Source of the DNA: a virus
Virus record (IMG/VR): IMGVR_UViG_3300015249_000001
Coordinates: 1-64,000 of that record
Reading direction: 5' to 3' (one strand)
Length of the DNA: 64,000 bases
The notes beneath the pieces are model-generated. The model made no database searches. It was given only the letters and a program-made list of their open reading frames with translations, and had not been told where the DNA came from. A program made the translations under genes and the position numbers. Shown one piece after another: positions 1 to 60,197 of the stretch. The first letter of the stretch is position 1, and every line of letters begins with the position of its first letter.

Positions 1-343
1 GCACGTACGGTTCATAACCAGTATCACTACGGGCATTTGTCGGGGTCGTGAAAGTATTGGTGGCCTTTACAAGGCTACGGGGCACAGCGCAGCTTATCGT
101 GATCTGCTTGCTGTAATCCAGGATGCCGAAGCCGAAGGGCAACCCCCCAGAACCAGACAGCGTGGTCTTCAACTTCTGCCAGTTGGTCTGCTTCAAGGCG
201 CTGCCTTGCATCATCCTTATGACCGAAGCGCCCCCTATCACCTCGTAATTCTGGTTGAACCCAAGGCAGTCAAAAATATTGGCGCGGACCTCGTTTGTGC
301 CATCGCTCAGCTTGAACCACCTAGCGTGGTCTTGGATACCCAT
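1..343 (-). CDS. hypothetical tail-module protein, N-terminal part only (ORF continues past left edge)
   Basis: ATG 343-341 with GGAGG (354-350) 6 nt upstream; my translation MGIQDHARWFKLSDGTNEV... stays open 114 codons to position 2; lies downstream of tape measure on - strand. Confidence 0.5.
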   Translation of the reverse strand, partial: MGIQDHARWFKLSDGTNEVRANIFDCLGFNQNYEVIGGASVIRMMQGSALKQTNWQKLKTTLSGSGGLPFGFGILDYSKQITISCAVPRSLVKATNTFTTPTNARSDTGYEPYV

Positions 344-7999: not shown

Positions 8000-8599
8000 A
8001 TGCACTCTATTTTTTTACCCCGCACAGACTTAAGGTTCAAGGTACCCTTGCTGGCCTTGGAATACTACGCCTTGAATATCACCCCTGATACGCCCCAAGA
8101 AGACAAGGCTTGGCATCTTGATTATATCCTACGGGTGCTGTGCTTGATCCGGCCTTGGGTCACCAAGGATGCAGAGTACCTGATCCAGAGGATTAAGGAA
8201 GCCAATGAAAGGCCCACCTCCCAAGCTACCCCTGCAACGGACAGGTTGACGTTTAGCTCCCGGTTCAATAAATGGATGCAAGAGCTGCCCACTGACGCCT
8301 TGCTGGCCGAAATGACCGGCTATGATACCCAGCGTATGCGGCAACTTTACTGCGTGGAGGATTACGTGACTACGCAAAAGCTAATCAAGCATTATGTCGA
8401 AGGTTTGCACCAAAAGAACCTGATGGCTTACGAGTGCGCCTTGTACGGGGCAGGGAACAGTTATAAAGGGGACCAACCCAAGGACCCCAACACCAAGGTT
8501 TGGGATGCCAACACCAAGGAGGGCATGGCGGCTATGGGGCAATTCGGCTTCGGGGCAATCAAGGACCCTTTGGCATTTGGGATCAAGTTGGATATTTAA
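8000..8599 (+). CDS. hypothetical protein
   Basis: 199 aa ORF on + strand inside the - strand morphogenesis block; no clear SD; no motif recognised. Confidence 0.4.
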   Translation: MHSIFLPRTDLRFKVPLLALEYYALNITPDTPQEDKAWHLDYILRVLCLIRPWVTKDAEYLIQRIKEANERPTSQATPATDRLTFSSRFNKWMQELPTDALLAEMTGYDTQRMRQLYCVEDYVTTQKLIKHYVEGLHQKNLMAYECALYGAGNSYKGDQPKDPNTKVWDANTKEGMAAMGQFGFGAIKDPLAFGIKLDI

Positions 8600-8612
8600 A
8601 GGCAGGCCTGAC

Positions 8613-8825
8613 ATGGACCCTACGATTTTCGACATCGACACATGGAGCAAGGCCGGTATTGTGGGCTTGTGCCTGATGGGGGCTTTTACCTGGGTTTTTA
8701 CGGTCACGCGGGCATTCTTACGCTGGGGGGACCTGGCTGCCCGCATCTGCCAGTCGCAGTACCTGCCAAAGGTGCTGCACGAAAACTGTAAACGGCGCCG
8801 GGCCAAAAAACCAGAGCTGCCTTGA
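8613..8825 (+). CDS. holin-like small membrane protein (candidate)
   Basis: 70 aa from internal ATG 8613; single TM (AGIVGLCLMGAFTWVFTV) and basic tail KRRRAKKPELP; upstream of spanin pair. Confidence 0.45.
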   Translation: MDPTIFDIDTWSKAGIVGLCLMGAFTWVFTVTRAFLRWGDLAARICQSQYLPKVLHENCKRRRAKKPELP

Positions 8826-8901
8826 CTGCAATAGGCATAGGGCATAAGATCACCAAGTCTAGTAATGACTTTCAACTTAAATTTTACTTTAGGAAACAAA
8901 G

Positions 8902-9147
8902 ATGGATATAGGTGAAGCTTTTAATGCTGTGCTTTCAGGTGAATACGACTACGCTACCAACCCAAGTTTCGCAGGGTTCAAGTACCGAAAAATAGACCTT
9001 TCTGCAGTCCCGCCAATCCCAGGGTTCACTATCGAATCCTACTGCCTGGGCCGGGTGACCCCACAAAACAAGATTCACATGAACTTTAGCCCTGACCACA
9101 AAGAGATTATCAGCCCTCTGTGGGAAGTGCATAACGACCCTGCATAA
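8902..9147 (+). CDS. hypothetical protein
   Basis: 81 aa; SD-like AGGAAACAAAG directly before ATG 8902. Confidence 0.55.
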   Translation: MDIGEAFNAVLSGEYDYATNPSFAGFKYRKIDLSAVPPIPGFTIESYCLGRVTPQNKIHMNFSPDHKEIISPLWEVHNDPA

Positions 9148-9311
9148 TTGACCAGCAAACCCAAGCTGCATTGGGGGTCGGCCTCCAATGAAGGCCAAGT
9201 CAAAGCCCTGTGTGGGCAGGTCGGCAAACTTATCCAGTATGCGGACACCCTAAGGGCCTTGACTTGCCATGCGTGTTGGAAGAAGCTGAAAAAGGCTAAG
9301 CAGGTTTAGGG

Positions 9312-9791
9312 ATGCCTTACCTAATAGCCGCCCTCCTTGCCTTTTCTTTCGCCGCTGGCTTCGGTACGGCTTACCGGTTCTACTCCACGAAGGCAGAGCT
9401 GCTCCAGCTCTCAATAGATACAGGCAACACGCTTGCGGGCCAGGAACTTAAATCCCTCCAGGTAGCCTTAAGGTCAAGCCAGGAAAAGGCGCTGGCCTTA
9501 AACACCCAGCTGGAGGATGCCCATGAGAGCGATATTCAGACTATCAATTATTACGCTGGCCAGCTTGCTGCTGTCCAGTTGCCAAAGCCAGCCGGTCATC
9601 AAGGTTGTGCAGACGCCTTGCCAAAAACCAAGCATCCCCCTGTCATTGCAGAAGATGCAACCCACCGAACCGACGTTCCAGAAAAACTTGCTGGATTTCT
9701 ACAGGCAGAAACTTACCGGGCAGACCAAGCCGCCCTAGACAAAAACATGCTGCTAAAGTTTGTGTTGGCTAATTGCGGGGTTTCAAACTAG
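9312..9791 (+). CDS. Rz: i-spanin (Rz-like)
   Basis: 159 aa; N-terminal TM MPYLIAALLAFSFAAGFGTAY then coiled-coil-like periplasmic region; contains an embedded lipoprotein ORF in +1 frame. Confidence 0.7.
   Translation: MPYLIAALLAFSFAAGFGTAYRFYSTKAELLQLSIDTGNTLAGQELKSLQVALRSSQEKALALNTQLEDAHESDIQTINYYAGQLAAVQLPKPAGHQGCADALPKTKHPPVIAEDATHRTDVPEKLAGFLQAETYRADQAALDKNMLLKFVLANCGVSN
9517..9738 (+). CDS. Rz1: o-spanin (Rz1-like lipoprotein) embedded in i-spanin gene
   Basis: 73 aa; GGAGG 7 nt upstream; signal + lipobox LLSSC; Pro-rich mature part; fully nested out of frame in 9312-9791. Confidence 0.65.
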   Translation: MPMRAIFRLSIITLASLLLSSCQSQPVIKVVQTPCQKPSIPLSLQKMQPTEPTFQKNLLDFYRQKLTGQTKPP

Positions 9792-27916: not shown

Positions 27917-28100
27917 GGGTCGGGTTCCTTTTCTTTTCAGGGGTTGGGGTGGGTTACTTTTCTTTTTCAGGTGTAAAGGGGTAGTATAAGGTATGGCAGG
28001 GTGTAAGGTAAAAGGTTTGGAGGGGGGTTTGGGGGGGGAGGGGGTACAGTCATGGTGTGGCCCCCGGCCACCGGCCAATAAATCCCCCCTGGGCCACACA
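27917..28100 (-). other. C-rich/G-poor 5' leader tract (G-rich on + strand)
   Basis: + strand runs G6 (28022-27), G8 (28031-38), G5 (28040-44); on the sense (-) strand nearly G-free; contains AACCCCCCTCCA (complement of 28018-28029) shared with tract at 31402-31413. Confidence 0.6.
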
Positions 28101-28103
28101 ATT

Positions 28104-28115
28104 TTGTAGTTACAA
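28104..28115. promoter_or_regulatory. dyad TTGTAGTTACAA (exact)
   Basis: in divergent region between kinase gene and early + genes. Confidence 0.7.
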
Positions 28116-28136
28116 AACCCATCTTGAAAATAATGC

Positions 28137-28166
28137 TTGACATCTTGCCAATCATTATGGTAAGCT
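28137..28166 (+). promoter_or_regulatory. sigma70-like promoter candidate (extended -10)
   Basis: TTGACA (28137-42), 18-nt spacer ending TGg, TAAGCT (28161-66); faces first + strand early gene. Confidence 0.4.
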
Positions 28167-28215
28167 GTACCCACGTTGCAAGGTTTACCGGCCTTGCCCC
28201 CGCAACCATCACTTT

Positions 28216-28227
28216 TTGTGATTACAA
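28216..28227. promoter_or_regulatory. dyad TTGTGATTACAA (1 mismatch)
   Basis: 13 nt before ATG 28241. Confidence 0.6.
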
Positions 28228-28240
28228 AAGGAATAAGACA

Positions 28241-28405
28241 ATGCTTACTGAATTTTTAATGTCAATGCTGGCGCATGGTGCCAGCCTGGATGACACAAGA
28301 CTATTCTTATCCGTGGCCGGCATGGCCCCGGATGAGATAGACGCGGCCCTAAGGGCCATGCTTGATGCGTTAGTTCAAGCAAACAATCAACTTAAACTTA
28401 ACTAA
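28241..28405 (+). CDS. hypothetical small protein
   Basis: 54 aa from ATG 28241, which is preceded by dyad 28216-28227 and AGGAATAAGACA; track ORF 28124 runs through the regulatory region. Confidence 0.45.
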   Translation: MLTEFLMSMLAHGASLDDTRLFLSVAGMAPDEIDAALRAMLDALVQANNQLKLN

Positions 28406-29878: not shown

Positions 29879-30022
29879 AAATTAAGCAGAAACATGGGTT
29901 ATTTTTCCTGGCCCGGACATATCGCCGGGGCCTTTATCGAATTGGCGGTTGAAAATTACAGGGAAAATCTAGGTATCACACCTAACTTATAAAGTCAATC
30001 ATTCCCACTATACCTAGTATGC

Positions 30023-30050
30023 AAAAAAGGGGCGAAAAGCCCCTTTTTTT
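30023..30050. terminator. bidirectional rho-independent terminator
   Basis: AAAAAA-GGGGC-GAAAA-GCCCC-TTTTTTT. Confidence 0.75.
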
Positions 30051-30135
30051 CGTTTAATTTTCGTGCCAAAAATAATACCAAGTATATAGAAGTCCTTACC
30101 TTGCCCCCCCGCAAATTCCATGCCATAATAAAAAA

Positions 30136-30165
30136 TTGCAATCACAAAAAGTGACTGTCTATATA
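30136..30165 (+). promoter_or_regulatory. promoter-like element with dyad in spacer
   Basis: TTGCAA, 18-nt spacer containing TCACAAAAAGTGA, TATATA. Confidence 0.3.
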
Positions 30166-30222
30166 GGGTAAGGCGTTACACGTGCTTTTTCCCCAGAATC
30201 GCAGCAATTCAACAATCACTTT

Positions 30223-30234
30223 TTGTAATTACAA
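30223..30234. promoter_or_regulatory. dyad TTGTAATTACAA (exact)
   Basis: within 22-nt long form AATCACTTTTTGTAATTACAAA (30214-30235); no gene follows. Confidence 0.7.
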
Positions 30235-30240
30235 AACGAG

Positions 30241-30256
30241 AGTCAAATATTTGACT
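30241..30256. repeat. 16-bp perfect palindrome AGTCAAATATTTGACT
   Basis: read directly in AT-rich non-coding region. Confidence 0.85.
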
Positions 30257-30512
30257 AACTTAAAAGATATGCTGACTAGGCTCAAAAATCAATCAACTGC
30301 TTGAAAAACAAAATCTTTTAAAAAGTCAATAGGCGCGTGAAAAGGGCCTGAAATGGTCGGTTTTTACTTTCTGACATTAACGCTTTTCTGGTTTTTGAGA
30401 AAGCGGGCAGAAAAGTGTCATTGTCTAATAGAGCTTAATTTCAATAACTTATCGAAAAAGTTCACCCAACATAGACGTAGGTATCCTTACAGCTTGTAAG
30501 GCAAGTCTTGGC

Positions 30513-30540
30513 AAATTGTAAGTTACATAACTTACAATTT
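30513..30540. repeat. 28-bp inverted repeat (13-bp arms, 2-nt spacer)
   Basis: AAATTGTAAGTTA-CA-TAACTTACAATTT; arms contain TTGTAA half-sites related to the genome-wide dyad. Confidence 0.9.
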
Positions 30541-31011
30541 GTAAATTATTAGCTGGCACAGTAATTGCATACAAACCCCTGAAACGCACGTCGTTCTAAC
30601 ATATTCGACTAAAAAAATCAGTTGACGATTTACAAGGCACTGATATACAACAACAAATAGTTTAAAAAGCCACTGAGCTTTTTTGTGGTCAAAAACGTAA
30701 TGTGTGATGAACCGTGCATTACAGACCAAAAAAATCGGTTTTTTCTTATCAAACGCCGGAAGTCCGCCGGTTTTTGGCCGTTTTTAGCCGAAAATCGGGC
30801 AGGTGCTTGGCAAGGGGCATCGTATAAATACCCCTTTATTAGTACTTATTAGAGCTATATACCATTGACGAAAAAAAAAGTACTTCTTTACAGTGTAAAG
30901 TATGTGCCTGACTATTGACGCTTTTTTGGTCAAGGGGCTGTAAGTTATTGATTTTATTTTGAAGGCTCTACAAGGTAGATGTTAGCTTTTCTTCGATAAT
31001 AGCTAACCGCT

Positions 31012-31025
31012 ATTTGTATACAAAT
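31012..31025. repeat. 14-bp perfect palindrome ATTTGTATACAAAT
   Basis: zero-spacer variant of the TTGTA/TACAA dyad. Confidence 0.85.
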
Positions 31026-31112
31026 TGCCATGTACCTGCCAGCTATCTCAGAATTGCCCAGTTGGCAAAATGTAAGGTACGATAACTTTTTGAAATTGAA
31101 AGAAAAATATTT

Positions 31113-31124
31113 TTGTAATCACAA
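31113..31124. promoter_or_regulatory. dyad TTGTAATCACAA (1 mismatch), long form in reverse orientation
   Basis: 31112-31133 is the reverse complement of AATCACTTTTTGTGATTACAAA. Confidence 0.6.
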
Positions 31125-31149
31125 AAAGTGATTAATTGCCTTGAAAATA

Positions 31150-31158
31150 GGGGGGGGG
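31150..31158. repeat. G9 homopolymer
   Basis: counted from sequence (31150 g plus eight g at 31151-31158), intergenic. Confidence 0.8.
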
Positions 31159-31379
31159 TCAAAATTTTTTCTAATATTAGGAGGCCAAAAAGTATCAAAC
31201 CGTCGGAGATTTATACAATCTGCCCTCTCCTACGCATCGACATTTTTTGGCCTTCAAAATTTATATTTTTTTTCTCCATACTGCCACAACCTAGCCGTTA
31301 GACCCTTTAAAACTTTATTTTCACTACCCGCAAAACCGCATTCTACCTACAACCTCACCAAAACTACGCGGAAGTGGTA

Positions 31380-31700
31380 CACCAAGCTCCTGCCCCTTGT
31401 CAACCCCCCTCCAGCCGGCCCAAAAAATCCAGTCCCCCCAGCCCCCTCCCTAGAAAAACCCCCCAAAAAACCCAACCCTCCCATACCATTCCCCTTTTTC
31501 TGCAAATTGGTTGAAATGAACCAATTTTTGAAATTTCAAAAAAACAACGTTCAATTAACCTCTCCTTACCATTCCCCTTTCCTTGCCCATTTTCCTCCGA
31601 CCATTCCCCCTGTACTGCCCCCTTTTCCCAAAACCTCCAAAAACTACCCGGAAGCATTTGTCAAGTTTATCGTATATCCCCTTCCCTTAAACCTCCACAG
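31380..31700 (+). other. C-rich/G-poor tract on + strand
   Basis: runs of C5-C7 separated by A-runs; very few G; contains AACCCCCCTCCA at 31402-31413; upstream of gene 31976. Confidence 0.6.
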
Positions 31701-31748
31701 GAAGTGTTAATGGACTATACTTTATTTTTTGCCAAAATCTTCTGACGG

Positions 31749-31777
31749 TTGACAAAAGTAATACCCAAGGGTACTAT
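31749..31777 (+). promoter_or_regulatory. sigma70-like promoter
   Basis: TTGACA (31749-54), 17-nt spacer, TACTAT (31772-77). Confidence 0.55.
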
Positions 31778-31975
31778 GCCCAGCAAGCCTAGTCTGACGG
31801 ATACCCCAAACGGTATTACAGTATATTTTACATATGTATTTGTAAGCTTTTGATTATTATAGAAAGTGCTAGTGACCATTTTTGTTCAATCCGTCGAACT
31901 TGCTTTACTCCGTGCCAATACTTTCCAAAATCCGGCACAACCGACCAAACTATTATCAACCAACAGGAAACAATA

Positions 31976-33742
31976 ATGACCACAGAACCTGAAATTCACC
32001 CTAAAGAACCAATGCAGAACTTAAAGCCAAGGTATGCCAACCTCCCGGAAGCATCCTATCCGGGAGGCTACCAGCCAACCTTGTACATAGCGCCAAGGCC
32101 AGCCTTGTACGACCACAGGGCGGAATCCACCACCCCCCTCCCCCATGTGCCGTCGCCCCCTCCCAACCCCTTGTGGGGACCCGTGTTCGACTGGGTGCAG
32201 CGGCAGGCGCCCTTCAACTACACGCCTGCCCACACCCACGCCTTCGGGGCGTCGGGGCCGGAAGCGCCAAGGCTGCTGGGGAGGGCGTCCAGCCTGCCGC
32301 ACGGCTACGACCACGCAGGGGCGCTGCCGTGCGGGGCGTTGAAGTTCTTTGATGTCCTTGCCTTCTTGGGGCAAACCGGGATGCCGCACGCACAGGCCAG
32401 GGTGCGCACGACGGGCATTGAGTTCGGCATGGCGGTGGCGGAATTGCCGGTGGCTTCAAGACTGACAGAAAACTTCAGTGGCAAGGCGCACAAGTGTGCG
32501 AAGCCGCCACGGAAGCGGGTGCTGAAAGTGTGCAGGTACACCTTGACGTGCGAAAGGTTCCTGCGCTTCTTGTGGGCGAAGCCGCCAAGGGACTGGGAAG
32601 GCAACGCCAAGCCGTTGGGGAGGCCGGCCAGCACGATGTCCTTGCAAGAACTTTCGGAAGCGTACCGGAAGCCGTTGCAGCGCCTGCCGGAAGGCCATTC
32701 CGCAAGGTATGTCCCACTTGACGAGCTGTCCTTGCCGGAAGAGGTGCGGCAATATGCCTGGGAGGCCCATGCCTGGATGGCGTCCGAAGGCATGGAAATC
32801 GAGGGTTCCCCGGAAGAGGACAGGTTGAAGCGCGGCGTGGACGTGCAGCCCGACCTTGTGGATTGCCGTGGCGGCAACCTGCGCCTTGCCGGGAAGCTGT
32901 TCCTGAACCCCCTGCCCTACCCCGCCAGCATGGCCTACACGTCATGGGAGGCGATGGCGGAATACAATTCCCTTGTCCCGGTGCTGTTCAAGGCGGCAGG
33001 GCACCACACGGGGATCTGGGAGGCCCACAGGACGGCATGGTCAGAAACCCACTTGGGTTACAAGGCAGTGTTGAATGGCGGCAGCGGCAACCTGCCGGAA
33101 GAGTGGAGGGCCAGGAGGTTCTCCAGCCGCAGCCCCTTCCGGGATGACCCTAAGTTTGTGGCCCAGGTCAACCAAAACCTCACCCTCTCCACGGGCACCC
33201 TTGTCGGTGCGGGCTTCTGGCACAAGGGGCCTTGGAAACTTGGCTTCGGGCAAGGCAGGCTGTATTGGAAGCCGGGGCATGTCAACAAGGTGGTCAGGAA
33301 AATCATGGAAAACTTCGGGCTGCCCCAATATGAAAAGCGCATTTCGTCCCTGCCGATGTCAGTGGAAGACCCTGCCGCGTACCTTGCGCATGGCTGGGCG
33401 GAAGACCCGTTCAGGCGGGACGCCACGGGCAAGGCGGCCAAGGCGTACCACTACCTCAAGGACGGCTGCGTGAGCCTGTCGCAGAGGCCGTCATGCAAGG
33501 GGCACCGGGAGAAGCTGCCTGCCGTGCACCCCATCGTGTACGCGCTCCTGTTCGGCCACAGCAGCCGGAAGCAGGAAGTGCTGACCTACCTGCTGCTGCC
33601 CACGGAAGAAGGCCACAGGGCGCTGGGCTTGCCCCCCTCGGACTATTACGACTTCTCTTGCATAGGGGCGCTTTACAAGGCGTCCCTTGGGTGGGCCGGC
33701 GAGGTGGAGGAAGGCGAGGTGCGCTGGGTTGAGCAGCAGTAA
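31976..33742 (+). CDS. large orphan protein
   Basis: 588 aa from ATG 31976 (AGGAAACAATA upstream); GC-rich; no motif recognised. Confidence 0.6.
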   Translation: MTTEPEIHPKEPMQNLKPRYANLPEASYPGGYQPTLYIAPRPALYDHRAESTTPLPHVPSPPPNPLWGPVFDWVQRQAPFNYTPAHTHAFGASGPEAPRLLGRASSLPHGYDHAGALPCGALKFFDVLAFLGQTGMPHAQARVRTTGIEFGMAVAELPVASRLTENFSGKAHKCAKPPRKRVLKVCRYTLTCERFLRFLWAKPPRDWEGNAKPLGRPASTMSLQELSEAYRKPLQRLPEGHSARYVPLDELSLPEEVRQYAWEAHAWMASEGMEIEGSPEEDRLKRGVDVQPDLVDCRGGNLRLAGKLFLNPLPYPASMAYTSWEAMAEYNSLVPVLFKAAGHHTGIWEAHRTAWSETHLGYKAVLNGGSGNLPEEWRARRFSSRSPFRDDPKFVAQVNQNLTLSTGTLVGAGFWHKGPWKLGFGQGRLYWKPGHVNKVVRKIMENFGLPQYEKRISSLPMSVEDPAAYLAHGWAEDPFRRDATGKAAKAYHYLKDGCVSLSQRPSCKGHREKLPAVHPIVYALLFGHSSRKQEVLTYLLLPTEEGHRALGLPPSDYYDFSCIGALYKASLGWAGEVEEGEVRWVEQQ

Positions 33743-33749
33743 TCACTTT

Positions 33750-33761
33750 TTGTCATTACAA
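33750..33761. promoter_or_regulatory. dyad TTGTCATTACAA (1 mismatch)
   Basis: long form 33741-33762, starts at the stop codon of 31976-33742 and precedes promoter 33772. Confidence 0.6.
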
Positions 33762-33771
33762 AAACTGTGCC

Positions 33772-33800
33772 TTGACGGCAACACTGTCAAGGTGTAAAGT
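33772..33800 (+). promoter_or_regulatory. sigma70-like promoter
   Basis: TTGACG, 17-nt spacer (contains CCTTGAC..GTCAAGG dyad), TAAAGT. Confidence 0.5.
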
Positions 33801-33806
33801 ATGGCT

Positions 33807-33929
33807 GTGCCCCCATCCAGGGGGCACTTACAGGGGCTATCGGTATGCCGGTGCGGGCGAAATACCGATAGCCCCAAGGTTATCGCTCCCCCTTGTGGCG
33901 GCCCCGCACAGCCGCCCCTGGGGGTTTTT
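33807..33929 (+). ncRNA. candidate structured leader / short RNA (three hairpins, last is a terminator)
   Basis: GTGCCCCC-5nt-GGGGGCAC (33807-27); 14-bp perfect stem 33833-46/33862-75; GC hairpin + TTTTT (33888-33929). Confidence 0.4.
33888..33929 (+). terminator. intrinsic terminator-like hairpin
   Basis: CCCCC..GGCGGC-8nt-GCCGCC..GGGGG followed by TTTTT, ending 1 nt before ATG 33930. Confidence 0.55.
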
Positions 33930-34331
33930 ATGGGGGATAAGATGGGTAATTTTTGTAACTTTATGTTGGGGGTGTCCATTGCCGCCGTGCTGGCTGCCCT
34001 TGGGTCCCTGGTGCGGGTCTTGGCGACCAGGGACCCAAAATTCAGGCGCGTCCCTGAGGCCCAGGACGCGCCCAAGTCTGTCCTTGCCCAGTGCAAGGAA
34101 GGCTACTCCCCCGCCCCGTACGACCCAGTCAGGTTCGTGGACATGGAAACGGTGGAGAAGGCGGAGAAGCCGCCATACCCTTATGACGGGTATGTCAAGC
34201 AGGTGGTGGGGTACAAGGTCGACAAGGGCCAACCCTTGGTGGACGTGGCCTTAAGGGAAAGTTTGCGGCAGCCCGGTGAGTTCCGCAGGAGGATGTGCGG
34301 CATGGCACATTGGGATGGCGGCGGCGAGTGA
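33930..34331 (+). CDS. small membrane protein
   Basis: 133 aa from ATG 33930 (MGDKMGNFCNFMLGVSIAAVLAALGSLVRVL, one TM); upstream 43 codons of track ORF coincide with RNA hairpins. Confidence 0.5.
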   Translation: MGDKMGNFCNFMLGVSIAAVLAALGSLVRVLATRDPKFRRVPEAQDAPKSVLAQCKEGYSPAPYDPVRFVDMETVEKAEKPPYPYDGYVKQVVGYKVDKGQPLVDVALRESLRQPGEFRRRMCGMAHWDGGGE

Positions 34332-37216: not shown

Positions 37217-37539
37217 TGGTGCCCATGAACCCGATCACCATCCCGGTGCCCACCATCGTCGAGTGGGCGCAGTACGGCATCACCCCAGGGGTCATGATGT
37301 TCATGATGGTCGCTGGCTGGCTTTTCACCGTGGCCATCGTGTGCAGGATGTTCATCCTGTTCGTCAAATGGCACACCTCGGAAATGGGCAAGGTGGGGGC
37401 GGCACATGCGGTCGAGCGGGACAACTTCTACAACAAGCTTGACGCCTTGCGGGACTCCCATGACAGGGAAATATCCAGGCTGTACGACCTGATCGGGGAG
37501 CTTTCTGACAGGGTGGCACGGGCCTTGGATAATGCTTGA
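37213..37539 (+). CDS. membrane protein with C-terminal coiled coil
   Basis: 108 aa; ATGA overlap; TM GVMMFMMVAGWLFTVAIVCRMFILF. Confidence 0.55.
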   Translation: MMVPMNPITIPVPTIVEWAQYGITPGVMMFMMVAGWLFTVAIVCRMFILFVKWHTSEMGKVGAAHAVERDNFYNKLDALRDSHDREISRLYDLIGELSDRVARALDNA

Positions 37540-37565
37540 CATATTGTAATTACAAAAGTTAATAT
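37536..37565 (+). promoter_or_regulatory. sigma70-like promoter with dyad in the spacer
   Basis: TTGACA (overlaps stop codon), 18-nt spacer containing TTGTAATTACAA (37544-55), TAATAT. Confidence 0.55.
37544..37555. promoter_or_regulatory. dyad TTGTAATTACAA (exact)
   Basis: inside the 18-nt spacer of promoter 37536-37565. Confidence 0.7.
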
Positions 37566-37571
37566 TGATCT

Positions 37572-37671
37572 GCCAGCGGAAAGCAGTGGGGGCTTTCCGC
37601 TGGCGATTTCAAATCACCACCAACCCCGGAGATGCAAGGCGCCCCTCGTAGGCCTTGCACCGGGGTTTTTT
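37572..37671 (+). ncRNA. candidate structured leader / short RNA (two hairpins, second is a terminator)
   Basis: 13-bp perfect stem 37572-84/37592-604; CCCCGG..TGCAAGGC-11nt-GCCTTGCA..CCGGGG + T6 (37624-37671). Confidence 0.4.
37624..37671 (+). terminator. intrinsic terminator
   Basis: two-tier GC stem followed by TTTTTT ending at the base before ATG 37672. Confidence 0.6.
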
Positions 37672-37866
37672 ATGGGGAAAATTATGGGGCCTACTTTTTG
37701 GAATTTCTTCTGGCAGGCACACCTTCCGGGTGTGCTGGGGCTGTGTGGTATCTTCAATGTGCTGTTTTTTAAAGGCAGCCCGATAGGGTTGGGTTTTTCC
37801 TTGCTAGGCTTCTACTTGTCCGTCCTGGAACTCAAGTCCTTGATGGGCAAGTGCAGGCAGGGGTAG
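37672..37866 (+). CDS. small two-TM membrane protein
   Basis: 64 aa; MGKIMGPTFWNFFW... N-terminus resembles that of 33930 gene; no SD (starts right after terminator T-run). Confidence 0.4.
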   Translation: MGKIMGPTFWNFFWQAHLPGVLGLCGIFNVLFFKGSPIGLGFSLLGFYLSVLELKSLMGKCRQG

Positions 37867-41125: not shown

Positions 41126-41155
41126 TTGACAAGATGTAAAGAATGATGCTATACT
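41126..41155 (+). promoter_or_regulatory. sigma70-like promoter
   Basis: TTGACA, 18-nt spacer, TATACT. Confidence 0.6.
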
Positions 41156-41161
41156 ATTATC

Positions 41162-41218
41162 TCAAGTTGGGTTGTTGACTTGTCCTCCTACTGACCTGCC
41201 CTAAGGCGGGTCTTTTTT
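41162..41218 (+). ncRNA. candidate ~55-nt attenuated transcript
   Basis: region between promoter 41126-55 and terminator 41193-41218. Confidence 0.3.
41193..41218 (+). terminator. intrinsic terminator
   Basis: GACCTGCC-CTAA-GGCGGGTC (one G-U) followed by TTTTTT. Confidence 0.6.
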
Positions 41219-41239
41219 GGGTAGGTGAATAATCACTTT

Positions 41240-41251
41240 TTGTAATTACAA
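41240..41251. promoter_or_regulatory. dyad TTGTAATTACAA (exact)
   Basis: long form 41231-41252; 16 nt before ATG 41268. Confidence 0.7.
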
Positions 41252-41267
41252 AACTTAGGAGAAGGCA

Positions 41268-41534
41268 ATGGCCTACTGTGCATACAATGGGGTCAACCAC
41301 CTGTACTACCGGGCGGACAACCTGGTTGACTTGGTGAAGTTGTTCACCAAGTTCCACATAGACGGAAAGACTGGCAAGACTGTGGTTAAAGTGGCAGGCT
41401 ATGCAGCCTGTCCCGGCACACGCTACAACATGAAGGAATGGACAGTGGGCGAGGTAGAAATCGACCTTGTTAAGCTTGTCCTTAGGGATATTAAGCGGGG
41501 GGATTACAAGATCACCCTATACAAGCAACTTTAA
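41268..41534 (+). CDS. hypothetical protein
   Basis: 88 aa; full cassette (dyad 41240-51, AGGAGAAGGCA) before ATG. Confidence 0.65.
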   Translation: MAYCAYNGVNHLYYRADNLVDLVKLFTKFHIDGKTGKTVVKVAGYAACPGTRYNMKEWTVGEVEIDLVKLVLRDIKRGDYKITLYKQL

Positions 41535-42393: not shown

Positions 42394-43852
42394 AAAGTTG
42401 CAAGCGCTCACCCCAGAACAAGAGGCCGCAATGCCGGGGTGGGCTGAGAAGTGGATAAACATAGGGCTTTGCACCGATGAGGCGGATTGGGAGGTGTCAA
42501 AGCAGGCCATAGCTGAGTGTTATGCCCTTGCTGGGCTGGAACCCCCTAAAAAGTACATCAAGGTGCAATCCCCCTTGGTGCTGGCGTTGGCCGCCCCAAC
42601 TGCTGATTTCATCTTGGGGTCCCTGCCCCAGGTCAGCCCTGTGGCCTTGGCAAGGGTTGGCGCTGTCAAAGAAGCCGTCAGCGGTGCCGTCAGCGCCGGC
42701 GTCAGGGATGCAGTCAACAACGCCGTCAGCGGTGCCGTCAGCGGCACCGTCAGGGATGCCGTCAGCGGTGCCGTCAGCGGTGCCGTCTTGTATGCCGTCA
42801 GCGGTGCCGTCAGCGGTGCCGTCTTGTATGCCGTCAGCGGTGCCGTCAGGGATGCCGTCAGGGATGCCGTCAGGGATGCCATCGTGGGTGCCGTCAGCGG
42901 TGCCGTCAGGGGTACCGTCATGGGTGCCGTCAGGGATGCCGTCAGGGGTGCCGTCAGCGGTGCCGTCAGGGATGCCGTCAGGGATGCCGTCAGGGATGCC
43001 GTGAGGGGTGCCGTCAGGGATGCCGTTAGCGGTGCCGTTGAGGGTGCCGTTTGGGATGCCACCGCTGATACCGTCAACGGTGCCGTGGGGGATGCCGTCA
43101 GGGATGCCGTTTGGGTTGCCGTCAACGGTGCCGTGGAGGGTGCCGTCTGGGATGCCGTTTTGGGCACCACCAAGGAGGGTGGGGTTAAAAACCCACTGGG
43201 CAAGCATATACAGGGAAATTGGGCCTATTACCTTGGTGGGCAGTCTTGGGCGGGCTGGAACTCCTTTGAATCCTTCTTCTTGGAAGTATGCCACTTAGGG
43301 ATACCGGATGAAATGAAGGCAAGGGCGGAGGCCTACAGGAAAGCCCAGTCTTCCTCTTTTTGGTGGTGGCCCCACAAGGATTTTGTGATGGTGTGCAACC
43401 GCCCCGTCAAGGTTAAACTAGAGGAAGGGCGCCTGCATTGTGCCGATGGTTTGGCCTTGCAGTGGCCAGATGGTTGGGGGATAGCTTCTTGGAAGGGCAC
43501 AGTCATACCTAACCAGTGGGTGTTGGGAGAAAAGCCCACAGCAGCAGAGTTGTTGCATTGGGAAAATGTTGAGCAAAGGCGGGCAGGGTTTGAATTGGTC
43601 GGGTGGGACAAGCTGTTATCCGAGCTGGACTACACCTTGGTTGATTCACACCCTAACCCGGAAATAGGAGATCTGATTGAGATAGATTTGCCGGACAGCG
43701 GCAAGGAACGTTTTATCAAGGTGATGTGCGGTACGGGAAGGCAGTTCGTCTTGCCCGTACCGCAGGAAATCCGCACCGTCATAGAGGCACAGGCATGGTC
43801 TTATGGGTTTGACCACCCACAAGATTTTTTATTACCAGAAGTGAGGACTTAA
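42383..43852 (+). CDS. A-V-x-x tetrapeptide-repeat protein
   Basis: 489 aa from ATG 42383 (dyad 42357-68 + AGGAGAAGGAA); 42 consecutive 4-residue units; globular Trp-rich C-terminal domain. Confidence 0.7.
   Translation: MGIKKLQALTPEQEAAMPGWAEKWINIGLCTDEADWEVSKQAIAECYALAGLEPPKKYIKVQSPLVLALAAPTADFILGSLPQVSPVALARVGAVKEAVSGAVSAGVRDAVNNAVSGAVSGTVRDAVSGAVSGAVLYAVSGAVSGAVLYAVSGAVRDAVRDAVRDAIVGAVSGAVRGTVMGAVRDAVRGAVSGAVRDAVRDAVRDAVRGAVRDAVSGAVEGAVWDATADTVNGAVGDAVRDAVWVAVNGAVEGAVWDAVLGTTKEGGVKNPLGKHIQGNWAYYLGGQSWAGWNSFESFFLEVCHLGIPDEMKARAEAYRKAQSSSFWWWPHKDFVMVCNRPVKVKLEEGRLHCADGLALQWPDGWGIASWKGTVIPNQWVLGEKPTAAELLHWENVEQRRAGFELVGWDKLLSELDYTLVDSHPNPEIGDLIEIDLPDSGKERFIKVMCGTGRQFVLPVPQEIRTVIEAQAWSYGFDHPQDFLLPEVRT
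42662..43165 (+). repeat. 42 tandem 12-nt units (consensus GCCGTCAGCGGT / GCCGTCAGGGAT)
   Basis: counted codon by codon: AVKE AVSG AVSA GVRD ... AVWD AVLG; in frame within 42383-43852. Confidence 0.9.
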
Positions 43853-43854: not shown

Positions 43855-44211
43855 ATGGAAAACGAAACAACATTTGTAAATGCAGCAGCCCAAGGGGACT
43901 TGTACCTGCAAAGGGTGGATGCTGTGCCCGAGGGCTTTGTAGCTACAAAGCCTGTAGAAAACAGATATGTAGTGGCTCACAGTGAGACCGGCCACCACCA
44001 TGTTGTGGAAGCAGAACCCGAAGTCAACTACTACACCGATCCGGGGGAACCTATGGTGGCCTACCTTGAAGTTAAAAAGATCGTTGGTGCTGCCCTGGAG
44101 CATTGCCGTGGCTTCGACACCCACAAGACACTGCGTATTCCCCAAGGCATTTTTAAGTTGTCCCGGCAACGGGAGTACACCCCCCAAGGCTGGAGAAGGG
44201 TACAGGACTGA
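43855..44211 (+). CDS. hypothetical protein
   Basis: 118 aa; GAGGA SD; GDLYLQRVDAVPEG...AHSETGHHHVV pattern seen in other phage orphans. Confidence 0.6.
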   Translation: MENETTFVNAAAQGDLYLQRVDAVPEGFVATKPVENRYVVAHSETGHHHVVEAEPEVNYYTDPGEPMVAYLEVKKIVGAALEHCRGFDTHKTLRIPQGIFKLSRQREYTPQGWRRVQD

Positions 44212-47051: not shown

Positions 47052-47081
47052 TTGACAAACTGTACAGTACTGTGCTACAAT
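47052..47081 (+). promoter_or_regulatory. sigma70-like promoter
   Basis: TTGACA, 18-nt spacer, TACAAT. Confidence 0.6.
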
Positions 47082-47087
47082 ATTAAC

Positions 47088-47127
47088 TGGTAAAAATTTG
47101 GGCCCGTCCATCGGACGGGTTATTTTT
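47088..47127 (+). ncRNA. candidate ~40-nt attenuated transcript
   Basis: region between promoter 47052-81 and terminator 47103-27. Confidence 0.3.
47103..47127 (+). terminator. intrinsic terminator
   Basis: CCCGTCC-ATC-GGACGGG followed by TTATTTTT. Confidence 0.65.
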
Positions 47128-47148
47128 GCCGGAATAAATAATCACTTT

Positions 47149-47160
47149 TTGTAATTACAA
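47149..47160. promoter_or_regulatory. dyad TTGTAATTACAA (exact)
   Basis: long form 47140-47161; 15 nt before ATG 47176 (GHKL ATPase). Confidence 0.7.
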
Positions 47161-47175
47161 ATTTGGAGAAAGACA

Positions 47176-48867
47176 ATGGCATTACCCGCAAACACAGGAA
47201 ATTTGGTGAAGTATTTGGAAAAAAGCTTCACCAACAAGACCACCTTCTTGACAGAAATGATGCAGAACGCAAGGAGGGCAAAGGCAACCTATGTTGCATT
47301 TAACCTCGATGAAGAAAATAACAAGCTAGTGGTCACGGACGACGGTGTAGGGATCACTGAGAAATCCCTGCTGTTCACCATCGCGGAGTCTGGCTGGGGC
47401 AACATGGAGGAGACGGCGGACGTGGTAAAAAACGAAGACCCGTTCGGTGTCGGCTTCCTGTCTGTATTGTTCGCTTGTAAAACTATCCTTGTGGAATCCC
47501 CAGGGTTCTCCCTGTTCGGCGAGACTAGCAGGATACTTGGTGAAAATGTGTTCCATAGGGAGGACTCCAGCGATGTGGGGGCAGGCACAAGGATAGAACT
47601 GCGTGGGTTGAAGGCGGACAAGTCCACTTTCCTCAAAGTGGTCAAGGAAGCCAGTAGGGGTTTCCCTATTGAAGTCCTTTTTGATGGCGTCCCAATGGAG
47701 CGCCCTTACGCCCTTGATATTGGCAAGTTTGAGGAGTGCCCAATGGGGCAGTGGTGGTGGAGGGAGAAGGACTACTCAAGATACCCACAGGTAGGATACT
47801 TTATCCAGGGGTTGCCAGTAGGGGTCAACACCTACAGCGCTACATCCCATCCACAGATAGTCGTCCACCTGGATTGTAAGCAGTATTCAGCCAGGGTACC
47901 CGACCGGGCGGTGCTGAATGATGCAGAGGCGGCTGCTAAAGCTGTACTTTCCTTCTATGAGCAACAAGTCAAGGAGCTGTTCATTAGGATGCTCGAAAAT
48001 AGCCCCTTAGAACTTTTACGGCATAGGGATACCCTCTATAGACACGGTTTGCTGCACCTGCTAAACACGGTACAGGCTTTGCCCAAAGACTTGTTGTGTT
48101 CTGTGCAAGACTTGCCTTATATGACAGAGGATTCCTGTGACCGAGATTGGCTAGTAACCAAAAAAGAGAGCTTTACCAGAGAAGACATCGCGTCAGGGCG
48201 AGTCAAGGTGTTCCACTTTAGCGATGACTATGAAATGGACGGCAGGCAGGACACAGCAGCCCGCTTGGCCTGGATAAGGCAAGCCCATGACACGGACAGC
48301 TCCTGTGACTATTTAGTCTATGACGGTGGCCTGGACTCAGGGCATTGGCTATACGACTACCTATTGGATGAGGACAGGATGGAAATGTCTGTGCTAGTGG
48401 GTAGTCAGACTTTCAAAGGCAAGTACCGCGGGGATACCTTGGGCACTTATGACTTGGTTATCTGTAAGTCCTACACCTTGCGTATGGAGTACGATTGGGA
48501 AGATGACCCCCGCAAGGAAGGGTTCCTTATGGATGTGCGGATTGATGATGAACCTTTGTTCTTGGCCAGTGAAGGGAATCTCTATACCCCTGGGAGAACC
48601 CACAGGCAAGACCTGTACAGCCTAATTAGGCAGATGGACAAGTTTTACAGCCAGGGTGACCAGCCCTTTGATGATGACCTAGTGTCCAAGGAGCTGACAA
48701 AGCTTAGCCAGTACATTTCCTTAAATTCTATGCAAGACCCTGCCCAAGCGTTGCTGTCTTTGATAGGCGGCCTGGACTTGTCCTTGTACCCAGGACTATT
48801 TGGCAAAGAGTTCAAGGTGGGGTTAAGTGGGGAAGGGCGACCTGTAGTCAGTGTGTTGAACACATAA
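47176..48867 (+). CDS. GHKL-family (Hsp90/MutL/MORC-type) ATPase
   Basis: 563 aa; Bergerat-fold motifs EMMQNARRA (motif I Asn), TDDGVGI (DxGxG), DPFGVGFLS (G-loop); exact cassette upstream. Confidence 0.7.
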   Translation: MALPANTGNLVKYLEKSFTNKTTFLTEMMQNARRAKATYVAFNLDEENNKLVVTDDGVGITEKSLLFTIAESGWGNMEETADVVKNEDPFGVGFLSVLFACKTILVESPGFSLFGETSRILGENVFHREDSSDVGAGTRIELRGLKADKSTFLKVVKEASRGFPIEVLFDGVPMERPYALDIGKFEECPMGQWWWREKDYSRYPQVGYFIQGLPVGVNTYSATSHPQIVVHLDCKQYSARVPDRAVLNDAEAAAKAVLSFYEQQVKELFIRMLENSPLELLRHRDTLYRHGLLHLLNTVQALPKDLLCSVQDLPYMTEDSCDRDWLVTKKESFTREDIASGRVKVFHFSDDYEMDGRQDTAARLAWIRQAHDTDSSCDYLVYDGGLDSGHWLYDYLLDEDRMEMSVLVGSQTFKGKYRGDTLGTYDLVICKSYTLRMEYDWEDDPRKEGFLMDVRIDDEPLFLASEGNLYTPGRTHRQDLYSLIRQMDKFYSQGDQPFDDDLVSKELTKLSQYISLNSMQDPAQALLSLIGGLDLSLYPGLFGKEFKVGLSGEGRPVVSVLNT

Positions 48868-53837: not shown

Positions 53838-54497
53838 ATGTCTAAAGATTACCTAACTAAATACCAAGAGCTGCTCGGCCTCAAGGCTGACGGCGTTATC
53901 GGGCCTATCACGGCCAAGGCAATCATGGATGACATAGGCATCAAGGACAGGGTGTTGTTCTCCCACCTGTTCGGCCAGATGCGGCTGGAGTCTGGGGGGT
54001 TCTCCAAGTTCAGGGAGAACATGAACTACTCTGCCAAGGGCTTAATGTCCACATTTGAGAGGTATTACAAAGGGAAACCGGAATTGGCCGAGGCCCATGC
54101 CCATAGGCCCACCACGATAGCCAACTATGTTTATGCCAACCGCAACGGGAACAAGGGGGTGGAATCCGGGGATGGCTATTTTTACCGGGGGGCTTTCGGG
54201 TTGCAGACCACGGGAAGGGCAAATTTCCTTGCCTTGTTCCGAGAGCTTGGCCTGCCAGCAGACACTGACCCTGACAGCTTGGAAGAGGATGTGCGCACCT
54301 ATTTCCGTGCCGGATTGTTTTATTTTAACCATAATAATGTGGATACCTTATGTACAGGGACCTCTGCTTCGTGCATCCTTTCCGTAGGCCGCAAGATTAA
54401 CCTAGGGACTTACAGGACAGAAACCATGCCCATCCATGCGGAACTCAGGCAGGAGTACACCAAAGCTTTATTCCGTTCCACCGGCCTGTCAACCTAA
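53838..54497 (+). CDS. endolysin: peptidoglycan-binding repeat + GH19 (chitinase-like) muramidase
   Basis: 219 aa from ATG 53838 (GGAG SD); LGLKADGVIGPITAKAI (PG_binding_1-like) and GQMRLESGGFSKFRENMNYS...YRGAFGLQTTGRANF (GH19 catalytic pattern). Confidence 0.8.
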   Translation: MSKDYLTKYQELLGLKADGVIGPITAKAIMDDIGIKDRVLFSHLFGQMRLESGGFSKFRENMNYSAKGLMSTFERYYKGKPELAEAHAHRPTTIANYVYANRNGNKGVESGDGYFYRGAFGLQTTGRANFLALFRELGLPADTDPDSLEEDVRTYFRAGLFYFNHNNVDTLCTGTSASCILSVGRKINLGTYRTETMPIHAELRQEYTKALFRSTGLST

Positions 54498-54504: not shown

Positions 54505-54534
54505 CCTGACAATTTGTATTTACAAATTGTCAGG
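54505..54534. repeat. 30-bp inverted repeat (14-bp arms, 2-nt spacer) built around the dyad
   Basis: CCTGACAATTTGTA-TT-TACAAATTGTCAGG, 8 nt after endolysin stop. Confidence 0.9.
54514..54525. promoter_or_regulatory. dyad TTGTATTTACAA (exact)
   Basis: core of the 30-bp inverted repeat 54505-54534. Confidence 0.7.
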
Positions 54535-58336: not shown

Positions 58337-59854
58337 ATGCCCGAAAATAAAGATTTGGCAATACCCTTGTCTTCTTATATGCCTTTGCCCTTAGGTCAAG
58401 AGGAACTGTACTTAACCCTGCAACCCAGGGCTGACCAAGTGGAAGACTACCTCACCCTGGTCAGTTGGCAGCGTTGTGCGAACTACAGTGAGGTGGGCAC
58501 CGGTAAAAGCTTTGTTTCATATTTGTTGATAATGAAGTCCCTATTGGAGGGTTTAAGGGTGCTAGTGGTCATGCCCCCACCCTTGATCCCCCAATATATT
58601 TACAACTTCCATAAGATCCTTCCCGGAAACCCTTACACTGTAGTCAGGCTGCACAAGGCCAAGGCCACCAGGGAAAAGGACATGGCAGCCTGGACTTCCC
58701 AAGGCAAGTGGCCTCAGGTGCTTGTGACCTCATACCAGTTGTTTGTCAAGTATCACCGGGAGCTATACGCTAAGGGTTGTTACGGCTTGTTGGTGGCCGA
58801 TGAAGCCCACAACATAGGGCTTGTACAGACCCATGCGTTCCGGGCTTTCTTTTGCTTTGTCTATGGTCGCAGGCCCATCAAGCTGCTATTGATGACGGCC
58901 ACTCCCGCAATGACGGAGATACAGTCCAACTACACCCAAGTGAAGCTCAGGGACCCTAAGGTGTACACCAACCTTGACCAGTTCGACCGGATGCACGTTG
59001 AGTATGAGACCAGGACGATCCAGGTGAACAACAAGAAAGGGCAGGAAATGCCCAAGAAAATCCAGGTCATTTCGGGCTACAAAAACTTGGACACCTTACA
59101 GGTAAACCTGATGCGGGGGGCTGTGCGTAGGAGGGCGGCAGAGGTGCTGTCCTTGGAAGCACCGACAATAATAGACCATTTAGTTATTTTAGAACCTAAA
59201 CACGAAGCACTATACCAGACCCTGCTGCAAGAAAGGATTCTGGAATTAGGGGAAGAAATAAGGGTGGCCAAGAACGCTTCTGCCTTGCGCCAGATGGCCT
59301 TGCAGATTATCACCAACCCCAACCTCTACATGCCCCCGGAAAGCCCCTTACCCGGTAGTGACATCAGCCCCTTGGAGGTTTTAAAGTCATTGCTAGGGGT
59401 GATGCCCTTGAAGGAGTCCAAGGTGTTGGTGTTTTGCCACTTCCAGAACACGGTAAAGATGCTTGAGAAGGAGCTGTCAGAATACAACCCTGCCCTGGTC
59501 TATGGGGGTTCCAACACCGACACCAACGTCAAGAAGCTGCTTGAGGATGGGACGTGCAGGATAGGTATCCTGAACTTCGCTTCCGGGGGTGCCGGGTTTA
59601 ACCTGCAAGGGGTTAGCCACCATGTCATTGTCTATGAGGCTATAGGGTCCCCAGGGATGATCCAGCAGGGGTTGGGACGTGTGCATAGGGGTGGGCAACA
59701 AAAGCCCGTGGTGGCCTGGATATTCCGTTATGGCGCCAGCTTGAGTGCAAGGCTATTGAACAAGGCCCTAGAGAGGGCAGGGTCTATCAAGGTTACTGTA
59801 GGGGACGACTTTTGCTTTGCAGATTTTATCATCGAGGGGGTTGACATATTGTAA
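58337..59854 (+). CDS. SNF2-family (SF2) helicase
   Basis: 505 aa; SEVGTGKS (motif I), LLVADEAHNIG (DEAH), QGLGRVHRGGQ (motif VI). Confidence 0.85.
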   Translation: MPENKDLAIPLSSYMPLPLGQEELYLTLQPRADQVEDYLTLVSWQRCANYSEVGTGKSFVSYLLIMKSLLEGLRVLVVMPPPLIPQYIYNFHKILPGNPYTVVRLHKAKATREKDMAAWTSQGKWPQVLVTSYQLFVKYHRELYAKGCYGLLVADEAHNIGLVQTHAFRAFFCFVYGRRPIKLLLMTATPAMTEIQSNYTQVKLRDPKVYTNLDQFDRMHVEYETRTIQVNNKKGQEMPKKIQVISGYKNLDTLQVNLMRGAVRRRAAEVLSLEAPTIIDHLVILEPKHEALYQTLLQERILELGEEIRVAKNASALRQMALQIITNPNLYMPPESPLPGSDISPLEVLKSLLGVMPLKESKVLVFCHFQNTVKMLEKELSEYNPALVYGGSNTDTNVKKLLEDGTCRIGILNFASGGAGFNLQGVSHHVIVYEAIGSPGMIQQGLGRVHRGGQQKPVVAWIFRYGASLSARLLNKALERAGSIKVTVGDDFCFADFIIEGVDIL

Positions 59855-59924
59855 CGGTAAGCTTAATCTAAGAGTCCCTTACAACATGTAAGCCACTAAT
59901 AACCTCTACTAGGACGCAGATACA

Positions 59925-60197
59925 ATGAACCAAAAAGAATTAGTTGATGTAGTTACAAAAACGTCAGGATACCCTAGGACCCAAGTGGAAAGTACCTTGT
60001 ACTCCTTGCTCAAAGCTATTGAAAGGGAAGTGGCCTCCGGAGGTGTAGTACGGCTGGTCAATTTCGGTACTTTCAAGACATTGCAGTATCAAGAGAGGAA
60101 CGCCATAAACCCGGTCACAGGTGCGCCTGTCATAAGGCCTGCAAAGAAAGTACCTAAGTTTTCTGCAGGCAAAAAGTTCAAGGACGCAATGGGCTAG
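59925..60197 (+). CDS. HU/IHF-family DNA-binding protein
   Basis: 90 aa; MNQKELV...VRLVNFGTFKTLQYQERNAINPVTGAPVIRPAKKVPKFSAGKKFKDA is a classic HU fold sequence. Confidence 0.85.
   Translation: MNQKELVDVVTKTSGYPRTQVESTLYSLLKAIEREVASGGVVRLVNFGTFKTLQYQERNAINPVTGAPVIRPAKKVPKFSAGKKFKDAMG
59947..59958. promoter_or_regulatory. dyad-like ATGTAGTTACAA (1 mismatch)
   Basis: inside codons 8-11 of the HU gene; may be coincidental. Confidence 0.35.

Follow-up and report, generated by a model that had tools for sequence, protein, structure and literature searches.

Multi-copy repeats that are palindromic or associated with start codons are already known from the Cluster K and Cluster O mycobacteriophages and from T4-type phages, and their function is mostly obscure. 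The promoter-early stem-loop (PeSL) cassettes of T4-type phages combine a repeated sigma70 promoter and a stem-loop with a Shine-Dalgarno sequence and ATG at the 3' end, flank ORFans, and recombine with one another (Arbiol et al. 2010, PMC2839356; Comeau et al. 2014, PMC4122927). Among mycobacteriophages, multi-copy repeats include the Cluster A stoperators (PMC9283540), the Cluster K start-associated sequences (SAS) and ESAS (PMC3203893), and the Cluster O 17-bp palindrome, which exhibits invariant arms and a variable centre (PMC4351075). The system described here has features of both the PeSLs and the mycobacteriophage repeats, and belongs to none of them. It lies in a 64,000-nucleotide stretch of phage DNA (positions 1 to 64,000 of IMG/VR virus record IMGVR_UViG_3300015249_000001, hereafter the window), in which a palindromic repeat, TTGT-N4-ACAA (the dyad), occurs together with four modules that each consist of a sigma70-like promoter, a short structured RNA and an intrinsic terminator. 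In module 2, a copy of the dyad sits inside the spacer of the promoter at position 37536 (P37536), and we read this module, with about even confidence, as an operator-controlled boundary cassette, placed within the early/middle gene array, whose leader terminator gates the next block of genes.

Module 2 is located on the plus strand and extends from P37536 through a leader of about 100 nt to a T-run at 37666. The −35 hexamer TTGACA (37536-37541), read directly in the sequence, is separated by an 18-nt spacer from the −10 hexamer TAATAT (37560-37565), and the strandless palindrome TTGTAATTACAA occupies positions 37544-37555 of this spacer, which corresponds to about −28 to −17 relative to a transcription start predicted from the promoter position at ~37572. 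The TGA stop codon of the upstream 108-aa gene falls within the TTGACA hexamer. Promoter matches of the form TTGAC[AG]-16..18-TAnnnT number 12 in the window versus 1.66 ± 1.16 in shuffled sequence, a 7-fold enrichment, and 10 of the 12 are on the plus strand. A tandem promoter-like site, CTGACA-17-GATAAT (37505-37533, 10/12 matches), is located just 5' of P37536; its GATAAT is supplied by the upstream block ATAATGC (37529-37535), and if this promoter is used the dyad would sit at about +4 to +15 of its transcript.

The predicted transcript opens at +1 with a perfect 13-bp hairpin with a 7-nt loop (37572-84 paired with 37592-604), followed in the predicted fold by the unpaired linker GAUUUCAAAUCACCACC (37605-37621) and by an intrinsic terminator (37622-37671) composed of a two-tier GC-rich hairpin (core 37624-65, approximately −25 kcal/mol) and T6 at 37666-71. 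The 100-nt RNA from 37572 to 37671 has a predicted folding energy of −55 kcal/mol (z = −6.06), a value equalled by none of 200 shuffled sequences. Directly after the T6 tract, an ATG at 37672 begins a 64-codon open reading frame (ORF; 37672-37866, plus strand) with hydrophobic segments at approximately residues 17-35 and 37-54. These elements, from the promoter with its spacer dyad through the 13-bp hairpin and two-tier terminator to the peptide with two transmembrane (TM) segments, had been described in an earlier note on this DNA, and all of them were recovered at the positions given here.

The 64-aa ORF was left uncalled by the metagenome gene caller. Its in-frame codon-usage score of 0.33 is better than in any of the other five frames and comparable to those of the called small genes (0.04-0.45), its GC content at third codon positions is 0.69, and it ends 4 nt 5' of the next gene. 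The ATG at 37684 appears the likelier start, as a GGGGA Shine-Dalgarno sequence is well placed before it; module 1 shows the same layout of a second ATG and Shine-Dalgarno sequence, at 33942. No homologs were found for the 64-aa ORF, nor for the 133-aa ORF. The genes that follow the 64-aa ORF encode a MazG-like protein, a DUF4326 protein, nucleotide-metabolism functions and ORFans, and no further plus-strand promoter match of at least 9/12 was detected between 37672 and 41126.

The earlier note had described two such modules; four were found (33772, 37536, 41126 and 47052), all on the plus strand and at operon boundaries. Module 1 (33741-33946) begins with a copy of the dyad in an extended, composite form (33741-63), followed by P33772 (TTGACG-17-TAAAGT, 33772-33800), a 123-nt structured RNA (z = −5.2), a terminator with T5 at 33925, and then ATGGGGGATAAGATG. 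Module 3 (41126-41270) comprises P41126 (TTGACA-18-TATACT), an RNA of ~55 nt, a terminator (41193-41212) with T6 (T-run at 41213), a composite repeat (41231-53), a ribosome-binding site and an ATG at 41268. Its leader (41162-41218) exposes an unpaired UCCUCCU, resembling an anti-Shine-Dalgarno sequence, between two hairpins. Module 4 (47052-47178) is similarly built from P47052 (TTGACA-18-TACAAT), an RNA of ~40 nt, a terminator with T5 at 47123, a composite repeat (47140-62), a ribosome-binding site and an ATG at 47176. The four best-formed intergenic plus-strand terminators between 31 and 62 kb (33925, 37666, 41213 and 47123) each lie 40-125 nt after a sigma70-like promoter. In modules 1 and 2 the ORF start adjoins the T-run, and in modules 3 and 4 a ribosome-binding site follows the terminator by no more than 45 nt.

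Sharing between modules was assessed by pairwise local alignment. Modules 3 and 4 have 65 nt in common, from the 3' arm of the terminator to the ATG (z = 22). In modules 1 and 2, about 45 nt are common to both (score 35, z = 7.2); they run from the 3' arm of the terminator through the T-run to about the tenth codon, with the nucleotide block ATGGGG.A..ATGGG..T.TTTTG.AA.TT at the ORF start. This score compares with 18.7 ± 2.4 and a maximum of 28 in 500 shuffles, and within the window no other non-self match to the module 2 junction is better, so that the resemblance of the two junctions to which the earlier note drew attention is real. Its further proposal, duplication of the whole regulatory unit, was not borne out: no more than these ~45 nt align, the leader hairpins of modules 1 and 2 did not align, and BLASTP detected no similarity between the two downstream ORFs. 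The flank of the module 2 −35 hexamer points away from duplication as well, as it is shared not with module 1 but with P28137, as an 18-nt match, ATAATGCTTGACAT.TTG (z 5.4), that includes the ATAATGC block. A second segment, TTGACATATTGTAA, is common to module 2 and P59841, the promoter ahead of the HU-like gene; P37536 has 14-nt blocks in common with two other strong promoter matches. At the spacer, modules 2, 3 and 4 and P59841 all show the pattern TTGACA-N3-TGTA(A/C). By these alignments the modules are mosaics of short common blocks and not paralogous as whole units. At 59841-59925 the promoter-like sequence TTGACATATTGTAAcggtaagctTAATCT, whose half-dyad is identical with the first 14 nt of P37536, lies directly 5' of the HU-family gene (59925-60197), whose product could be a candidate for binding the dyad, or a decoy.

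The dyad is a repeat of the phage as a whole. TTGT-N4-ACAA (TTGTNNNNACAA) was found at 22 sites in the window against 1.23 expected, TTGTAATTACAA with at most one mismatch was found 17 times against 0.11 expected, and two further copies are located just outside the window. Single mismatches are confined to the central 4 nt, leaving the TTGT and ACAA arms invariant, and the consensus is a 16-bp palindrome, TTTTGTAATTACAAAA (TTTTGT-N4-ACAAAA). Invariant arms and a variable centre are what a dimeric DNA-binding protein would be expected to require, and at its module 2 position the palindrome is best read as an operator for such a regulator. Seven dyads carry an asymmetric extension, AATCACTTTTTGTAATTACAAAA, to form the composite repeat, which occurs in both orientations (14 strand-matches versus 0.21 expected) and has in its left arm a weak AAnAAT 7 nt ahead of the dyad. 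The possibility that the repeat is itself a sigma70 promoter was rejected, as no TAnnnT with a fitting −35 was present.

Several dyads are located in promoters or non-coding DNA with no start codon nearby (28104, 30223, 31113, 33750 and 37544). The module 1 copy at 33750 is 10 bp 5' of the −35 hexamer, and the copies at 28104 and 28216, 112 bp apart centre to centre, flank a divergent early promoter region. This region (28104-28243, plus strand) contains in order a dyad (28104-15), P28137, a second dyad in the 5' untranslated region (28216-27) and an ATG at 28241; it overlaps the divergent control region (28079-28240) between the minus-strand dNMP-kinase gene and the first early operon, in which a minus-strand promoter-like site is also present (28181-28154). 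Two or three dyads (30136, 30223 and 31113) fall in an AT-rich non-coding stretch of ~1.8 kb (30000-31850) that follows a bidirectional terminator (30023-30050). Composite repeats at 30136 (minus strand), 30214 (plus) and 31111 (minus), other direct and inverted repeats, and sigma70-like promoters at 30865 and 31749 are found within this stretch, which may serve as an origin of replication or as a regulatory hub. The earlier note had linked the dyad directly to promoter control. The position within the P37536 spacer is indeed a natural one for an operator, but the dyad is not specific to promoters, as there are at least 22 copies and 10 of the 22 in the window are linked to start codons.

Like the T4-type PeSLs, the present cassettes are repeated units headed by a sigma70-like early promoter whose upstream flank is conserved and AT-rich; a dyad or stem-loop is often found in the −35/−10 spacer, and the 3' end carries a Shine-Dalgarno sequence followed by an ATG. 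They likewise flank ORFans, and their mosaic blocks suggest recombination between cassettes. They differ in that the spacer dyad is AT-rich and, at −1.9 kcal/mol as RNA, too weak to terminate upstream transcription, whereas the strong terminator is located ~95 nt after the start site and hence acts on the promoter's own transcripts. The phage is also unrelated to the T4 type and is siphovirus-like. With the mycobacteriophage repeats this system shares the presence of many copies of a 12-17-bp motif, mostly intergenic and concentrated among the non-structural genes, although the repeat sequence is unrelated and the host here has TTGACA/TATAAT promoters and GGAG ribosome-binding sites. As with the stoperators, there are many intergenic copies and one (37544) at an early promoter, P37536; stoperators, however, are asymmetric and oriented with transcription, whereas the site here is a perfect palindrome in a phage with no detected integrase or repressor family and a gene content that looks virulent. 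The 10 of 22 dyads located 12-20 nt from an ATG recall the Cluster K SAS, although the module 2 copy is not among them, and the SAS are asymmetric and contain the Shine-Dalgarno core while the dyad is palindromic with the Shine-Dalgarno sequence outside it. The Cluster O repeats have the same invariant arms and variable centre, but are not start-linked.

Behind the boundary-cassette reading of module 2 stand the observed elements and their statistical excess, together with the fold prediction, the promoter-then-terminator order seen four times, the blocks shared in mosaic fashion and the coding-like ORF. From these we infer that the promoter is active and where its transcript starts, how efficient the terminator is, that read-through or antitermination takes place, that a protein binds the dyad and in which direction it acts. 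The sigma70-type P37536 would fire from ~37572, and the very stable 5' hairpin with which the transcript opens would probably stabilize the RNA. Polymerase would reach the strong intrinsic terminator ~95 nt on, and expression of the 64-aa ORF and the 3.4-kb block behind it (37.7-41.0 kb) would depend entirely on polymerases reading through this terminator (T37666), because the ORF start adjoins it and no promoter match of at least 9/12 precedes 41126. The terminator would thereby serve as a gate, either as a leaky attenuator or as a target of antitermination, acting alike on transcripts from P37536 and on read-through from the upstream operon. The spacer palindrome would most probably be bound by a dimeric phage-encoded regulator, which at −28 to −17 would silence or readjust P37536 within a temporal switch. 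That the promoter-then-terminator order is found four times argues for design, and the phage-wide distribution of the dyad suggests a global temporal regulator.

Several observations weigh against this reading. A terminator placed after a promoter attenuates that promoter's own transcripts, an arrangement that would be pointless unless termination were conditional, and the four leaders showed no antitermination signal in common, either as RNA or as DNA. No candidate for the dyad regulator was identified among the proteins examined: the 54-aa first early protein (28241-28405) is confidently predicted to form three helices (pLDDT 90), with no significant fold match, and the HU-like protein is closest to generic HU. 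No diverged relatives were found, only near-identical copies of the same phage, and in the one relative at ~56% protein identity both the dyad and the modules are absent. Finally, ten of the 22 dyads are start-linked, nine on the plus strand 12-16 nt before a called ATG and one on the minus strand at 20 nt; a spacing of 12-20 nt is not needed by a DNA operator and points to a role at the level of RNA or translation.

This spacing is the basis of one of the two alternatives that best survive, neither of which we consider likely. Here the dyad would act on RNA or translation as a start-associated element to which some factor binds 5' of the Shine-Dalgarno sequence, or would be a conserved linker of shuffled cassettes; the copy in the P37536 spacer would be a by-product of recombination with no control over the promoter. 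The start-linked dyads are located directly 5' of the ribosome-binding site, with the Shine-Dalgarno sequence outside the repeat, and are often followed by GGAGAAAGACAATG; two of them lie within the 3' end of the preceding gene and retain the spacing even there. The mosaic modules resemble the T4-type PeSL cassettes, whose stem-loops are commonly found in the −35/−10 spacer; a precedent exists in the Cluster K start-associated sequences. However, the hairpin that the dyad would form in RNA is barely stable (−1.9 kcal/mol) and is absent from the predicted structure of the native start regions. The arms show no compensatory changes among the core sites, and the palindrome is extended by its flanks only at 43937 and 54514. 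Moreover, the five dyads in promoters or non-coding DNA listed above are far from start codons, and the module 2 copy is 116 nt from its ATG. The block GGAGAAAGACAATG is a near-identical translation-initiation sequence present at at least eight genes (28230, 28409, 29368, 44254, 45446, 47165, 50291 and 52609), whether or not a dyad lies upstream. At 54505-54534, 5' of gene 54579, a 30-bp perfect palindrome, cctgacaatTTGTATTTACAAattgtcagg, surrounds a copy of the dyad and as RNA would form a hairpin of −19 kcal/mol (z = −5.4).

A comparably small chance is given to module 2 being a stand-alone gene for a trans-acting small RNA of ~100 nt, with a 5' hairpin, a 17-nt single-stranded seed and a U6-tailed terminator, for which the targets would be host or phage mRNAs or proteins and expression of the ORF would be leak. 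Phage small RNAs with their own promoter and terminator are known in lambda oop and P22 sar, which the module 2 RNA resembles in its length of ~100 nt, 5' hairpin, single-stranded stretch and intrinsic terminator. This is the classical architecture of bacterial and phage small RNAs, the fold is highly stable, and the unpaired UCCUCCU of module 3 would also fit such a role. Unlike oop and sar, the module 2 RNA is antisense to no gene, and the next start codon adjoins its U-tract with no spacer or promoter of its own. The linker has no convincing complementary target in the window: 8-mers occur at chance level only, and complementary stretches longer than 8 nt are absent. The module 4 product, at ~40 nt, comprises little beyond a terminator hairpin. 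A search of the window against Rfam 15 returned no match at the gathering score and none accepted at E = 10, the best sub-threshold match having E = 0.22 and 23 bits against a gathering score of 90.

A more far-reaching possibility, which we regard as improbable, would make the four gates and the at least 22 palindromes one timing circuit, spanning the phage and under a single phage factor. Such a factor would recognize TTTTGT-N4-ACAAAA as well as the TGTA half-site of the four promoter spacers; besides switching early promoters, it would permit the gene blocks that follow to be reached by read-through or to be translated. If true, the circuit would represent a new kind of antitermination, or of dual DNA/RNA regulation, with no relation to N, Q or put.

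It is very unlikely that P37536 is non-functional, with the hairpin and terminator simply ending the upstream operon (33.9-37.5 kb) and the downstream genes reached by leak. The upstream gene does stop within the −35 hexamer, placing the terminator where an operon terminator would be expected, but the promoter-then-terminator order is found four times, P37536 has 14-nt blocks in common with two strong promoter matches, and such promoter matches are 7-fold enriched.

In the lambda PR'-6S RNA-tR' region with Q, a promoter that looks constitutive and has a DNA element in its spacer precedes a short terminated leader and a small membrane-protein gene; module 2 shows the same order, with a strong promoter, a spacer element, a promoter-proximal terminator and a small two-TM ORF, together with the recurrent TTGACA-N3-TGTA of the modules 2-4 and P59841 spacers. 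The earlier note observed that lambdoid Q-binding elements, like many repressor operators, lie at the position of the dyad. A lambda-type late promoter, at which a Q-like protein would bind the dyad, load onto polymerase paused near the promoter and carry it through the terminator into a holin-like gene, is nevertheless extremely improbable: a −10-like pause element is missing from the initial transcribed region GCCAGCGGAAAGCAGTGGGGGC, and the sequence from +1 to +25, GCCAGCGGAAAGCAGTGGGGGCTTT, contains no TAnnnT-like sequence; the at least 22 dyads are placed variably with respect to promoters (upstream, in the spacer or after the terminator) and there are four modules; no antiterminator family was detected in Pfam or PHROG matches of the genes examined, which cover all but ~2 kb of the genome; the likely lysis genes, a spanin pair (9312-9791) and an endolysin-like gene (53838), are at other positions; and the genes downstream, the two-TM ORFan followed by MazG-like, DUF4326 and nucleotide-metabolism genes, do not look like late genes.

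The window is part of an ~81.5-kb circular or terminally redundant phage contig (ENA ERZ27267776 k141_128248), and the same phage was found again in one Logan run and one JGI sample. As judged from its gene content, it is apparently a novel tailed, siphovirus-like phage of an uncharacterised lineage, and it looks virulent, with PolA, primase, SbcCD and ThyX present and integrase and repressor families undetected. The structural genes, including those for the tape measure, portal and S49 protease, are on the minus strand, while a gpA-type terminase is encoded on the plus strand. The non-structural genes form a co-directional plus-strand array of ~35 kb that includes ArdC-like, primase, SNF2 helicase, HU-like and SSB genes; PolA, a methylase and an intein-containing helicase are encoded outside the window in the same phage. 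An integrase, a repressor, a sigma factor and a phage RNA polymerase all went undetected in the parts of the genome that were examined, and the phage would accordingly rely on the host RNA polymerase, as the boundary-cassette reading supposes. A 956-aa protein considered as a phage RNA polymerase that would use the repeat as its promoter was rejected, as the protein is a primase; it has no sequence match in PDB. No tRNA or tmRNA was found. Within the minus-strand structural module, a plus-strand gene island (8000-9791) that includes a small TM protein is probably a lysis cassette; it contains an Rz/Rz1-like pair in which the outer gene (9312-9791) encodes an N-terminal TM segment and a coiled coil and the embedded gene (9517-9738) has the lipobox LLSSC. 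The endolysin-like gene (53838-54497) is distant from this island. A repetitive glycine-zipper gene region at 42700-43160 (42.7-43.2 kb) matches the circularisation junction of the contig, and in gene 60234 the window has one 48-nt unit more than the ENA contig (60427-60438).

The terminase is 27% identical to the best phage record, and no close relatives were detected by megablast against phage records or by protein-seeded scans of IMG/VR and GTDB. Pattern scans of IMG/VR returned chance matches only, with no multi-dyad loci. A scan of JGI metagenomes with CACTTTTTGTAATTACAAA returned 44 loci, of which one (L174, 99.9% identity) was the same phage, and the ENA and Logan copies, compared as a check for strain variation, exhibit no differences across the modules. 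The neighbouring 122-aa protein has homologs of 51-56% identity in phages that lack the dyad and the modules.

The finding is genuine, although repeats like it are known from other phages. For annotation, automatic gene calling has overlooked the 64-aa ORF and the short leader RNAs, which are probably genuine features. What is combined here in one genome is a start-coupled palindrome, the same palindrome at or inside sigma70 promoters, and four promoter-proximal terminators. This combination would provide a compact system in which to test whether such repeats act on DNA, RNA or both, and it would also reveal how blocks of genes are timed in a virulent phage that has no RNA polymerase of its own.

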